A DNA stretch of 64,000 nucleotides, from the NCBI GenBank assembly GCA_964538865.1, contig CAZIHU010000002.1, positions 30,163 to 94,162 of the forward strand. Reading direction: 5' to 3'. Each line of letters begins with the position of its first letter. The stretch's first letter is position 1. The notes beneath the pieces are model-generated. The model worked only from the letters and a program-made list of their open reading frames with translations. It did no database searches and was not told where the DNA came from. Positions 6,978 through 36,847 of the stretch are shown here, piece by piece. The DNA comes from an uncultured Candidatus Peribacteria bacterium (GTDB lineage: Bacteria > Patescibacteriota > Gracilibacteria > UBA1369 > UBA12470). A program made the translations under genes and the position numbers.

Positions 6978-7094
6978 GATGAATAAAGTTAATTGGGATT
7001 AAATTTTCCATGCTTGAATATAGATTCATATTCAGCGCGCAAATATATCATACATTCAATCACAAAGCTAGGGGTAAGACAAAGTTAAAAGAGG

Positions 7095-7218
7095 GGGGAT
7101 GACGCCCCCGCCGCTGGCGGGGGCTAGGCTTCTGCGTCTCGCTCGGTAATGTCTAAACTTCGTTTAGCCATTACGCTCACTCGACTTGAAGCAGCGAACC
7201 CGCTGGGTTCGCATCCCC
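7095..7218 (-). ncRNA. candidate structured RNA linked to tRNA-Ser (copy 1)
   Basis: Closing stem GGGGAUG/CAUCCCC enclosing hairpin GCGAACCC-AGC-GGGUUCGC, a long arm (GCUUC...GUAAUG-G-CUAAAC-GAA-GUUUAG-A-CAUUAC...GAAGC) and hairpin GCCCCCGCC-AGC-GGCGGGGGC; about 90 percent identical core shared with 12705..12826. Confidence 0.55.
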
Positions 7219-7229
7219 TTTCTTCCTCA

Positions 7230-7267
7230 TCGAAAACCGCTCCCGCAGATGCGGGACCGCTTTTCGA
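7230..7267 (-). other. hairpin spacer between tRNA-Ser and the downstream structured RNA (terminator-like)
   Basis: Imperfect 13-bp palindrome TCGAAAACCGCTCCCGCA-GA-TGCGGGACCGCTTTTCGA abutting the tRNA CCA end; U-run present in this copy only. Confidence 0.45.
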
Positions 7268-7359
7268 TGGCGGAGAGGGGGGGATTCGAACCCCCGCGCC
7301 GGGAAACCCGACCTACAGGATTAGCAATCCCGCCCCTTCAGCCACTTGGGTACCTCTCC
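7268..7359 (-). tRNA. tRNA-Ser (anticodon GCU)
   Basis: Reverse complement folds as cloverleaf: acceptor GGAGAGG/CCUCUCC, anticodon loop UUGCUAA, long variable arm, T arm GGGGG-UUCGAAU-CCCCC, discriminator G and encoded CCA. Confidence 0.9.
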
Positions 7360-7413
7360 GCGCTGGCTGAGCACTCAATTTTTACCTTGAATCAGGAGAT
7401 TTTACAAGAGAGA

Positions 7414-11607: not shown

Positions 11608-12498
11608 TCACGAAAACAAGCCCGTACTTAAATATTTCTCACCCCGATCAGGGAAGACTACAACGATATTGCCGCGATCGAGATTTTTAGCGACAGAAAG
11701 TCCAGCCACCAAAGCCGCCCCCGAGCTCATCCCAACAAAAACACCTTCCTCCCGCGCAAGGCGCCGGGCCATTTTATAAGCATCTTCTTTCTCGACAGAA
11801 ATTCGCTCATCAATCGCACCATTATCAAAAATATCTCCGTGAAAATCCCCCTCCGGATTCTGCAAACCTTGGATTTGATAGCCAGATGGTGGAATAACTC
11901 CAATAATACGCGTATCAGGAGAACTTTCACGGAATTTCTTAGAAAATCCCATGATAGTTCCGCTTGTCCCGGTTCCTGCTACTAAAGCATCAATACCCTC
12001 AGGCAAATCCTCCAAAATCTCCTCAGCAGTGTAGTAATGAGCCTCTGTGTTATCTGGATTGTTAAATTGGTTCGAAAACCAATATTTCTCAGGAGACTGC
12101 TTAGTAAGCTCACGCGCCTTAGCGATCGCACCTCCGGTTCCAAGCGCTTTATCGGTCAAAATAAGCTCAGCACCATAAGCTCTCATAACGGTTCGTCTTT
12201 CCTCGCTCATACCTTCGGACATGAGGATTTTGACTTTGTAGCCTTTTTGGGCGGCAACCATAGCCAGCGCTATCCCCATATTCCCACTTGTCGCTTCAAG
12301 AATAGTCATCCCAGGCTTAAGTTGCCCGCGTTTTTCGGCTTGTTCGATCATAAAAAGCGCAGCACGATCCTTGATAGAACCGCTGGGATTTTGGCCTTCC
12401 AGCTTCGCGTACAGGTTGACTCGCGGATTCTGCGTGAATTTATTGAGTTTCACGAGGGGGGTGTTGCCAATTGAGTTTAAAAGATTGTTATAAATCAT
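11608..12498 (-). CDS. cysK: cysteine synthase (O-acetylserine sulfhydrylase)
   Basis: 296 aa; GNTPLVKL, PLP-lysine region NPSGSIKDRAA, TSGNMGIALA, GTGTSGT loop. Confidence 0.9.
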   Translation of the reverse strand: MIYNNLLNSIGNTPLVKLNKFTQNPRVNLYAKLEGQNPSGSIKDRAALFMIEQAEKRGQLKPGMTILEATSGNMGIALAMVAAQKGYKVKILMSEGMSEERRTVMRAYGAELILTDKALGTGGAIAKARELTKQSPEKYWFSNQFNNPDNTEAHYYTAEEILEDLPEGIDALVAGTGTSGTIMGFSKKFRESSPDTRIIGVIPPSGYQIQGLQNPEGDFHGDIFDNGAIDERISVEKEDAYKMARRLAREEGVFVGMSSGAALVAGLSVAKNLDRGNIVVVFPDRGEKYLSTGLFS

Positions 12499-12515: not shown

Positions 12516-12545
12516 TAAAAAAACTCTCGATCTGGATTCGAGAGT
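12516..12545 (-). terminator. intrinsic terminator inside the cysK leader (attenuator stem 3:4)
   Basis: Minus-strand RNA ACUCUCGA-AUCCAGA-UCGAGAGU followed by U7, ending about 17 nt before the cysK ATG. Confidence 0.7.
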
Positions 12546-12571
12546 CGCTGCAAGGTGTTTTTATTTAAAAA

Positions 12572-12643
12572 TCAACACAAACAGGCGGCTCTCGGGAGAG
12601 AGCAGCAACAACAAGTTAAATTGTGTAAATTTTGAATCTTCAT
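12572..12643 (-). CDS. candidate Cys-rich leader peptide (23 aa) of cysK attenuator
   Basis: ATG AAG ATT CAA AAT TTA CAC AAT TTA ACT TGT TGT TGC TGC TCT CTC CCG AGA GCC GCC TGT TTG TGT TGA = MKIQNLHNLTCCCCSLPRAACLC*; TATAAT lies 9 nt upstream of its ATG. Confidence 0.6.
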   Translation of the reverse strand: MKIQNLHNLTCCCCSLPRAACLC

Positions 12644-12704
12644 CTCACTACAATTATACATCTTTCCGGGGGGCTTGTAAAGTCTTGCTTTGTACAAGGA
12701 GAGG

Positions 12705-12826
12705 GTGGGATGACGCTTTGCTTCGCAAAGCTAGGCTTCTGCGTCTTGCTCGGTAATGTCTAAATTTCATTTAGCCATTACGCTCACTCGACTTGAAGCA
12801 GCGAACCCTGCGGGTCCGCATCCCAC
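12705..12826 (-). ncRNA. candidate structured RNA linked to tRNA-Ser (copy 2)
   Basis: Same architecture as 7095..7218 with changed but still pairing stems: closing stem GUGGGAUG/CAUCCCAC, hairpin GCGGACCC-GCA-GGGUUCGC (G.U only on minus strand), apical CUAAAU-GAA-AUUUAG, hairpin GCUUUGC-GAA-GCAAAGC. Confidence 0.55.
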
Positions 12827-12875
12827 TCTCGGCTAATCGAACTCAGCCCTTACCTTCGGCAAGGTCTGATTTCGA

Positions 12876-12967
<92 letters not shown>

Positions 12968-35944: not shown

Positions 35945-36847
35945 ATGAAAACTCTCAAAGACCTCATCGTCGACTTCCTCGAGCACGCCGAGATTGCCAA
36001 AAACCAATCCGAAAAAACGATCGAGAACTATCATCACTACCTCCATCGATTCTTGGATTTCGCAGGTGATATTAAGCCAAACGCCATCACTTTAAAACTG
36101 GTCCAGAAATACCAGCTCCACCTCAATCGCCTCGAAGAAAATTTAAGCAAAAAAACTCAAAATTACCACATCATCGCGCTAAGGGCTTTTCTCAAATACT
36201 TAATAAGAAACGACTACGAAACCCTCCCTCCAGAAAAAATCGAACTCTCAAAAACCCCCGAACGTACAGTCGAATTTCTCACTCGCGAAGAATTGGAACG
36301 CCTATTTAAATCTGTAAATTTAAAGAACAAAAAAGGCCTCCGCGACCGCGCAATCCTCGAAACACTATACTCAACAGGCCTCCGCGTCAGCGAACTGAGG
36401 TCCCTCAACCGCAAACAAGTCGACTTAAAACGCCGCGAATTCATGGTCCGCGGAAAAGGCCGCAAACCTCGCATCGTCTTCATCTCAGACCGCTGCGCAA
36501 AATGGCTCAATGAGTACCTAAAAACCCGCACCGACAACCACGAACCTCTATTCATTAATTATGGGCGAACTCGCTCCGGAGACAACATCTCAGCAGGCGA
36601 AAAACGCCGCCTAACCGACTACTCTATCCAAGAGATAGTAAGAGGCACCGCCCGCCACGCCGGCTTAGTCAAACGCGTCACCCCTCACGTCCTTCGACAC
36701 AGCTTCGCAACCGAACTCCTTCAAAACGGCGCCGACATCCGCTCAGTCCAAGAAATGCTCGGCCACGCCTCAATCACAACCACACAGATCTACACACATG
36801 TGACAAACAAGCGCCTCAAGGAAATACATAGAAAATACTTGAAATAA
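35945..36847 (+). CDS. xerC: tyrosine recombinase XerC/XerD
   Basis: 300 aa; SAM-like N domain, catalytic R..HxxR..Y region HVLRHSFATELLQNGADIRSVQEMLGHASITTTQIYTHV. Confidence 0.9.
   Translation: MKTLKDLIVDFLEHAEIAKNQSEKTIENYHHYLHRFLDFAGDIKPNAITLKLVQKYQLHLNRLEENLSKKTQNYHIIALRAFLKYLIRNDYETLPPEKIELSKTPERTVEFLTREELERLFKSVNLKNKKGLRDRAILETLYSTGLRVSELRSLNRKQVDLKRREFMVRGKGRKPRIVFISDRCAKWLNEYLKTRTDNHEPLFINYGRTRSGDNISAGEKRRLTDYSIQEIVRGTARHAGLVKRVTPHVLRHSFATELLQNGADIRSVQEMLGHASITTTQIYTHVTNKRLKEIHRKYLK

Follow-up and report, generated by a model that had tools for sequence, protein, structure and literature searches.

Both serine tRNA genes in a 64,000-nucleotide stretch of the chromosome of an uncultured Candidatus Peribacteria bacterium (referred to below, at its full length, as the window) are followed on the same strand by a sequence predicted to fold into an elaborate and very stable structure. 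The question raised by this locus is whether such a sequence is a gene for an RNA that serves the host or something that has settled beside the tRNAs. A first-pass annotation, made from the sequence alone, had proposed a structured RNA element with compensatory changes between its two copies. The structural part of this proposal stood, as the fold is real and covaries in 12 copies, whereas the reading as a host RNA was not supported, the element behaving as an insertion. We consider it probable that each unit is a copy of a small non-autonomous insertion element without an ORF, directed at the 3' ends of class II tRNA genes (Ser and Leu) in a clade of Peregrinibacteria, and that the fold is a cis-acting structure for its mobility.

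The window is ordinary chromosome with housekeeping genes throughout, as judged from Pfam. Its nearest named protein relatives belong to Peregrinibacteria and other CPR bacteria, and contigs identical to it are present in several JGI and ENA metagenomes. According to both ARAGORN and Rfam it contains exactly two RNA genes, both of them tRNA-Ser. Pfam reveals neither a reverse transcriptase (RT) nor a transposase in the 64 kb, and the sole recombinase is a Xer-like protein (35945-36847), 23 kb from the nearest unit, which exceeds the NCBIfam XerA/integron-integrase cut-off. No homologues were found for the 203-aa protein neighbouring the element, and no synteny was recovered from the CysK homologues examined. 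Two regulatory regions deserve separate mention. Between the second element and cysK (11608-12498), the minus-strand segment 12522-12681 carries a near-consensus promoter, TTTACA-17-TATAAT, at 12681-12653, a leader ORF of 23 codons (12572-12643, MKIQNLHNLTCCCCSLPRAACLC) in which four Cys codons stand in a row upstream of cysK, a terminator at 12522-12546 and possible alternative CUCUC/GAGAG pairings; its sequence suggests that cysteine synthase is controlled here by attenuation at Cys codons. Upstream of tRNA-Ser(GCU), at 7379-7407, lies a promoter-like motif, CTTGTAAAA ... (G)TGTAAAA(G/A)TT, which is conserved in all relatives (at the orthologous positions of loci L021, L022, L023, L024 and L026); the window motif scores below the threshold of a consensus scanner.

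Behind each tRNA-Ser gene the unit begins with a hairpin straight after the CCA and continues through a short linker into a four-way-junction fold of approximately 135 nt. Measured from the base after CCA to a distal repeat described below, it spans approximately 165-190 nt. The tRNA genes and the parts of the two units (A behind tRNA-Ser(GCU), B behind tRNA-Ser(UGA)) are as follows.

7268-7359, minus strand: tRNA-Ser(GCU), intact, CCA encoded (ARAGORN; Rfam tRNA, 56.9 bits)
7230-7267, minus strand: unit A, first module, a hairpin right after CCA (-25.9 kcal/mol, z -5.3)
7087-7226, minus strand: unit A, four-way junction (minimum free energy structure = centroid; core z -7.25; covariance-model match 7082-7224, 126 bits)
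7221-7226 and 7213-7218, pairing with 7095-7100 and 7087-7092, minus strand: unit A, outer and closing helix
7194-7212, minus strand: unit A, 5' hairpin
7128-7192, minus strand: unit A, long arm with two tandem G.A loops
7104-7124, minus strand: unit A, 3' hairpin
12876-12967, minus strand: tRNA-Ser(UGA), intact, CCA encoded (ARAGORN, Rfam, pattern match)
12837-12875, minus strand: unit B, first module, a hairpin right after CCA (-20.1 kcal/mol, z -4.1)
12701-12830, minus strand: unit B, four-way junction (core z -6.9; covariance-model match 12694-12831, 132.9 bits)
12828-12830 and 12820-12826, pairing with 12705-12711 and 12701-12703, minus strand: unit B, closing helix
12801-12819, minus strand: unit B, 5' hairpin
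12735-12799, minus strand: unit B, long arm
12715-12731, minus strand: unit B, 3' hairpin

The hairpin of unit A, UCGAAAAGCGGUCCCGC-AUCU-GCGGGAGCGGUUUUCGA, is of the terminator type, with an A-tract, a GC stem and a U-tract, and the long arm of approximately 65 nt carries two tandem G.A loops. Compared with shuffles, the whole units fold with -100 kcal/mol (A, z -9.0) and -79 kcal/mol (B, z -6.8). Much of what had been read from the letters is borne out by these results: a hairpin and a conserved element do follow both tRNA-Ser genes on the minus strand (ARAGORN, reading and alignment agree), the core common to both copies is highly similar (93.75% identity over 96 nt), and the four-way junction with tandem G.A loops in the long arm is seen in the folds of both cores (z -7.25 and -6.9). 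The differences that had been named between the copies are also present, with A given before B: GGGGAU(G)/(C)AUCCCC vs GUGGGAU(G)/(C)AUCCCAC in the closing stem, CUAAAC/GUUUAG vs CUAAAU/AUUUAG at the apex of the long arm, and GCCCCCGCC/GGCGGGGGC vs GCUUUGC/GCAAAGC in the replaced 3' hairpin, together with the G.U pair in the 5' hairpin of copy B. A peptide had been thought unlikely, and indeed the unit contains no ORF and the copies have no conserved one. The element had also been held not to be a known RNA, and covariance-model searches against Rfam match tRNAs only. Besides tRNA, the best overlaps in Rfam 15 score 16-27 bits against gathering thresholds of 47-90, all of them on the tRNA T arm; up to E=10 the matches are solely tRNA-derived, with no tmRNA, SRP, 6S, RNase P, T-box, twister-sister, hairpin ribozyme or Y RNA-like match. 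Rfam and the literature searched, including the Peribacteria genome paper PMC4736985, gave no account of such an element. Within the 64 kb window, neither sequence nor covariance-model searches detect a third copy.

The 3' strand of the closing helix turns out to be a repeat of the adjacent tRNA's own 3' end, starting from T-loop nucleotide 59. The tRNA ends and their repeats in the window are the following.

7268-7285, minus strand: nucleotides 59-76 of tRNA-Ser(GCU), the proximal direct repeat (ATCCCCCCCTCTCCGCCA; pattern match)
7090-7100, minus strand: distal repeat of unit A, ATCCCCCCTCT, equal to tRNA nucleotides 59-70 minus one C; 3' strand of the closing helix
12876-12893, minus strand: nucleotides 59-76 of tRNA-Ser(UGA) (pattern match)
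12698-12711, minus strand: distal repeat of unit B, ATCCCACCCTCTCC, an exact copy of tRNA nucleotides 59-72

The sequence ATCCCACCCTCTCC occurs at two sites in the window, namely 12698-12711 and, as an exact match, 12880-12893 within tRNA-Ser(UGA); copy A has ATCCCCCCTCT where tRNA-Ser(GCU) has ATCCCCCCCTCTCC. An inverted copy of the same tRNA region forms the 5' strand of the closing helix and the 5' strand of the 5' hairpin. In copy B this strand, GAGAGTGGGATGCGGACCC, agrees at 16/19 positions with GAGGGTGGGATTCGAACCC, the reverse complement of nucleotides 51-69 of tRNA-Ser(UGA). The 3' strand of the 5' hairpin, GGGTTCGC, corresponds to the T stem and the start of the T loop, and GGGTTCG is invariant in all copies. 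Given these inverted and direct T-arm copies, the closing helix and the 5' hairpin constitute one T-arm palindrome, into which the long arm and the 3' hairpin are inserted exactly at 58|59. The G-C to U-A difference in the closing stem, previously offered as covariation, loses its force here: the 3' strand copies tRNA nucleotides 59-72 and changes with the tRNA, so that the difference arises because it mirrors the C64/A64 difference of the two tRNAs and is not independent evidence of selection.

Relatives of the element were sought in genome, metagenome and viral collections. In species-representative genomes, an exact 20-mer scan gave zero matches and a degenerate two-anchor pattern scan gave two copies (L011 and L012), both in one Peribacteria MAG (CAYFOI). 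No copies were found by scans of viral contigs or by blastn against phages, and the window's own population is absent from the metagenome collection that was scanned. Through synteny around the PabB homologue, the orthologous region was recovered from another six genomes. A covariance model (R1) was built from 11 copies, and covariance-model searching gave 12 distinct copies of 97-133 bits in approximately seven related uncultured genomes. Copies follow tRNA-Ser(GCU) in the window, L024, L026/L027, L031 and L033, and tRNA-Ser(UGA) in the window, L022 (two, in tandem), L024 (one, plus a degenerate copy of 34 bits) and L027. To the earlier question of whether the element always lies 3' of tRNA-Ser, the answer is no: the L011 copy follows tRNA-Leu(UAA), the identity of this tRNA being inferred from a partial gene, and L012 has no tRNA within the 127 nt of sequence available upstream, ends in ATCCCTCCCTGCCAACCA and is followed by the remnant of a second right end. 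Contig ends often fall inside copies (L011, L012, L020, L025 and L027-L029), as expected of repeats. Genes for a Doc (Fic/DOC) toxin and an HTH_17 (excisionase-like) protein lie immediately downstream of the tRNA-Leu copy (L011:238-916). Two other sets of pattern matches were rejected as chance: L010, in a Phycisphaerales coding region, and L013-L019, seven metagenome contigs of one soil locus beside a truncated RT, in which the likeness is confined to the pattern itself and the region is not unusually structured (z -1.0). In this soil locus (for example L015:3365-6042) the RT reading frame is interrupted by an inserted large serine recombinase gene, and upstream there is a divergent small protein with a KRCGKPGCKC motif.

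The boundaries of the unit are the same throughout. Repeats of tRNA nucleotides 59-72 or 59-76, 11-18 nt in length, are present in 12/12 copies (L012 with the distal repeat only), and the junctions are constant across all copies, the left one exactly at CCA76 and the right one at T-loop nucleotide 59. The distal repeat matches the tRNA end at 18/18 positions in L022 E1, the proximal copy of the tandem pair, and at both L024 loci, at 17/18 in L011 (TTCCCGCCCTGGGTACCA vs TTCCCGCCCTGGGCACCA in the tRNA-Leu), at 17/18 with one extra base in L033, at 16/18 in L027, and at 14/14 in each of window copy B and L031. In the window copies, L031 and L022 E2, the distal copy of the pair, the repeat ends before GCCA and the sequence beyond differs from GCCA.

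Comparison of the syntenic context (pabA-pabB-pabC, a CarS-like gene and tRNA-Ser(GCU)) reveals which tRNA sites carry the element. The tRNA-Ser(GCU) site is occupied in the window, L024, L026, L031 and L033 and is empty in L022, where a hairpin only is followed by the next promoter. Other empty sites are tRNA-Ser(UGA) of L033 and tRNA-Ser(CGA) of L031, and in the more distant L034 clade all three tRNA-Ser genes are without a copy. At the tRNA-Ser(GCU) site of L023 there is a different insert, of approximately 290 nt, with the same 18-nt repeat. The native flank GATCTGTACCCCAAAAAGTGGACACGG comes after the distal repeat both in L033, which has the element, and in L023, which has the other insert, and this shared flank argues that the inserts entered between the tRNA body and its original end. 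The hairpin stands directly after CCA at empty sites too; from its presence at occupied and empty sites alike, the element appears to replace the tRNA trailer, with its fold lying behind a likely terminator. Hairpin types track the element and not the tRNA (by reading, L027_UGA resembles L024_GCU, and L022_E1 resembles L031_GCU). The likeness among elements is independent of tRNA and host genome, window copy B being nearest to the tRNA-Leu copy L011 (77%) and the nearest relative of L024_UGA being L022_E2. The tandem copies of L022 belong to different subtypes, E1 having a perfect repeat and z -2.9 and E2 being degraded (z -0.07), and in the tandem array of L024 it is the second copy that is degenerate. 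L022 E2 is one of several decayed copies, others being L012 (z +0.6) and L011 (z -1.7). The units are thus an ORF-less family of approximately 170 nt located at tRNA nucleotides 58|59-76, with duplication of the tRNA end, tandem stacking, turnover and decay.

Other insertions are found at or near tRNA genes in these genomes. A second small insert family occurs after tRNA-Ser genes (L023:5227-5527, L031:5843-6040 and L024:11056 onward); its members start with (T/G)TGTAGTAGCGAG or GTTATGTTGCGAGG and have GTCGAGTG...CCGAGAGCGAAGGAC and short TAGGATTGTAGGGT-type tandem repeats, and the L023 member carries a terminal exact 18-nt copy of tRNA nucleotides 59-76. In L021:16785-20069, from the CAYFOI Peribacteria MAG, tRNA-Ser(GCU) is followed by a large serine recombinase (XisF/Ccr-like), a 372-aa tyrosine integrase and then a 67-aa N-terminal PPDK fragment. 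This insert looks like an island that deleted or displaced genes present in the window, and there is no second repeat of the tRNA end within the 4 kb of sequence available. Elsewhere in the same locus (L021:1-6368), a 320-aa group-II-intron-like RT, below the curated cut-off and with weak Drt3a and retron matches, lies beside an N6/N4 methyltransferase and a ResIII helicase and is not adjacent to any element copy; given these neighbours, the region may be a defence island. L036:6772-6958 belongs to a strain variant of the L034 lineage whose tRNA-Ser(GCU) differs in its T arm. Behind this tRNA come an insertion with an assembly gap, then 28 nt that repeat the 3' part of the original tRNA, and finally the native flank. 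Here the same tRNA is used by another, larger integration event.

The fold is conserved and covaries. In a model-based alignment of the 12 distinct copies, whose fit to the model favours structure somewhat, 90.7% of cells are paired, compared with 78.2% in 500 shuffles, and double-sided changes occur in 16/30 pairs, compared with 8.6 expected, a value reached by 0/500 shuffles. When partners are slid as a control, paired cells drop to 32-49%. The compensatory changes are confined to the long arm and the 3' hairpin (helices 3-6), and helices 1 and 2, which form the T-arm palindrome, have no double-sided change in any of the 12 copies. Most copies individually fold as a hairpin and a four-way junction despite very different apical sequences, and the purine-rich internal loops of the long arm are conserved in the sense strand.

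The evidence for a particular strand is weak. G.U cells outnumber A.C cells across copies by 19 to 9, RNA minimum free energies are similar for sense and antisense, and folding as single-stranded DNA gives z -6.0 to -6.6 for sense and -4.0 to -5.8 for antisense. The argument for a minus-strand RNA that the first-pass annotation drew from G.U pairs carries little weight on these figures, sense folding about as well as antisense whether as RNA or as DNA. Its further suggestion of co-transcription with the tRNA meets the difficulty that the spacer hairpin is terminator-like in several copies: the module is a canonical terminator (A-tract, stem and U-tract) in copy A, L012, L024_UGA and L022_E2, and such a hairpin before the fold argues against efficient co-transcription.

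These observations bear directly on the possibility of a host-beneficial small RNA. In this proposal the RNA would be co-transcribed with class II tRNAs, freed by tRNA-processing enzymes and serve as an acceptor/T minihelix mimic for RNase P, the 3' trimming enzymes, the CCA-adding enzyme or SerRS/LeuRS, which would suit a closing helix that bears the tRNA's own 3' strand, sometimes with NCCA. The strong covariation in the long arm and 3' hairpin, the purine-rich internal loops conserved in the sense strand and the excess of G.U over A.C cells (19 vs 9) agree with it, whereas the equally good folding of sense and antisense does not. A plausible promoter can be assigned to each tRNA, with nothing promoter-like between tRNA and fold, but the terminator-like hairpin lies between them in copy A, L012, L024_UGA and L022_E2. 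The window copies are very stable and tRNA-Ser(GCU) has retained the element in five lineages, yet several copies no longer fold (L012, L022 E2 and L011), the orthologous tRNAs of close relatives are empty and a whole sister clade is without the element. Tandem copies of different subtypes are also difficult to reconcile with such a gene, and we regard this explanation as unlikely.

The same facts fit more readily with insertion at the tRNA end by a small mobile element. Integration would proceed by site-specific recombination at the T loop (58|59), as with tRNA-targeting integrases, by an enzyme presumably supplied in trans. The proximal tRNA end and the terminator would be brought by the element, and the distal repeat with its flank would be the displaced original end. 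The four-way junction would then be the element's cis-acting mobility structure and not a host RNA gene. Because the T arm is represented in the closing helix and the 5' hairpin by one inverted and one direct copy, the folded single strand would rebuild a duplex copy of the target; it would place a Holliday-junction-like branch point exactly at the insertion site, and the long arm, with its conserved purine-rich loops, and the 3' hairpin would be kept by selection on the element lineage.

Several known systems share parts of this arrangement. Tyrosine-integrase islands and prophages integrate at the T loop and the 3' end of tRNA genes ('sublocation' classes). As in such islands, the tRNA is kept intact with the insert directly downstream, a flanking direct repeat runs from the T loop to the tRNA 3' end including CCA, insertions occur in tandem and the tRNA also serves as a site for other elements (L021, L023 and L036). 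Unlike them, the element measures approximately 170 nt and not kilobases, being ten to a hundred times smaller, contains no integrase or other ORF, and possesses an inverted target copy that pairs with the repeat as well as a covarying four-way junction. Folded single-strand recombination sites are represented by integron attC and the CTX-phage attP(+) hairpin used by XerCD. The element resembles these in that a folded imperfect inverted repeat recreates a duplex copy of the recombination site, here with the junction at 58|59, in that structure is more conserved than sequence, and in its tandem integrated copies; a recombinase acting in trans may be a further likeness, the window's only recombinase being Xer-like. 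It differs in that its target is a tRNA gene and not attI or dif, and in that its fold is a four-way junction with sequence-conserved internal loops. Moreover, attC and attP(+) are strand-specific, whereas the strand preference of the element amounts to only 19 G.U to 9 A.C cells and its single-stranded DNA stage is putative.

A third comparison is with the MITE-like palindromic repeats of bacteria (ERIC, Correia, RUP, BOX and REP-type). The element is likewise small, ORF-less, multi-copy and intergenic, would form stable stem-loops if transcribed and breaks assemblies. In contrast to these repeats, it is not dispersed, all examined copies but L012 following a tRNA, and it has a site-specific 11-18 nt repeat of the tRNA end in place of a short fixed target duplication. 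A fixed short duplication at dispersed sites was not found, nor was a parent IS with matching ends seen in approximately 0.4 Mb of related DNA. The closing helix is an inverted repeat of 6-13 bp; its 3' copy is tRNA-derived, and the true left end of the unit is the hairpin module. A palindromic element derived from IS200/IS605 was rejected, as such elements insert on the 3' side of a fixed tetra- or pentanucleotide without target duplication and here the target is duplicated over 11-18 nt.

Some observations count against a mobile element. It is implausible that a double-stranded circle of approximately 170 bp could serve an integrase as substrate. Preservation of the window copies is very good (z approximately -7) and their neighbours are housekeeping genes; a host-useful RNA would look the same. 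Occupancy of tRNA-Ser(GCU) in five lineages could also be accounted for by vertical inheritance and purifying selection. Copy L012 is without a tRNA in the 127 nt available upstream, and wherever the repeat stops before GCCA, the model of a displaced tRNA end needs a later loss. In the approximately 0.4 Mb of related DNA examined, neither a partner recombinase or RT nor an autonomous version of the element was found. On this reading the unit is a site-specific integrating element pared down to a structure without genes, and its mechanism has a fair chance of being new. More tentatively, and with some doubt, the units might represent a protein-less class of tRNA-gene parasite that would move as a folded single strand and be inserted by a housekeeping Xer-type recombinase, restoring the tRNA end and terminator; an RNA version of it would be the first bacterial SINE-like retroposon with a tRNA-like 3' tag.

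Movement through RNA can be modelled on retron ncRNAs and on the tRNA-like 3' tags of retroelements such as the Mauriceville retroplasmid and SINEs. An RNA with a tRNA-like 3' tag (59-76 and CCA) would be copied by an RT acting in trans, primed at a T-loop nick at 58|59 or at the CCA end, and the cDNA would enter the tRNA gene via homology on both sides. The invariant junctions of all copies, exactly at CCA76 on the left and at T-loop nucleotide 59 on the right, are in keeping with this route, as is the variable repeat length (11-18 nt), although the terminator-like hairpin at the start of the unit would be odd in an RNA template. A closing helix with a long hairpin is reminiscent of RT-recognised RNAs, for example retron ncRNAs: the element similarly has a closing helix formed from its two ends, short hairpins and one long hairpin, and its 3' end resembles a tRNA acceptor strand with CCA, as in the Mauriceville and SINE tags. 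Unlike the copies of retrons and retroelements, those of the element are linked to a particular DNA site. The 320-aa group-II-like RT is encoded in one host genome (the CAYFOI MAG), but no RT is present near any copy or in the window. The strand bias is weak and, to our knowledge, target-primed retrotransposition of this type has no precedent in bacteria, so we judge this route to be quite unlikely. A retron itself was rejected, as no RT adjoins any copy or lies within 20 kb of the units in the window, and neither the Rfam search nor the sequence revealed retron or group II features.

It is more improbable still, and in our view very unlikely, that the units are inert scars, that is, leftover att-arm sequences of deleted larger islands or prophages without present activity or function. 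The status of tRNA-Ser(GCU) as an integration hot spot is compatible with such an origin, as are the serine recombinase and tyrosine integrase directly after this tRNA in L021, the 28-nt second copy of the tRNA 3' part after the insertion in L036 and the other small insert with the same repeat in L023. However, 12 copies at three kinds of tRNA in approximately seven genomes have identical boundaries and modular architecture, so the same internal deletion would have to have occurred many times, and the compensatory changes indicate a structure under selection. The remaining candidates were also rejected: a T-box or riboswitch for cysK, whose leader is apparently a separate attenuator based on Cys codons; a K-turn, from whose consensus the loop departs; SRP or 6S RNA, given that the apical loops lack conservation; peptide coding, as the copies share no ORF; and a CAST homing or bridge RNA, for which no protein is associated and the segments that might act as guides are base-paired.

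For the discovery of noncoding RNAs the locus holds a caution, namely that strong covariation and stability beside a tRNA are not, alone, proof of a host RNA gene. If insertion by a mobile element is indeed the origin of the units, they would be among the smallest site-specific integrating elements known to us, with approximately 170 nt and no gene. A fold made from a mirrored copy of its own target would offer a testable model of how recombination sites are made by folding, and a selfish element would be seen to exploit tRNA genes harmlessly by providing a replacement 3' end and terminator. The element is a marker of genome dynamics in bacteria of the Candidate Phyla Radiation, where few mobile elements have been recognised.
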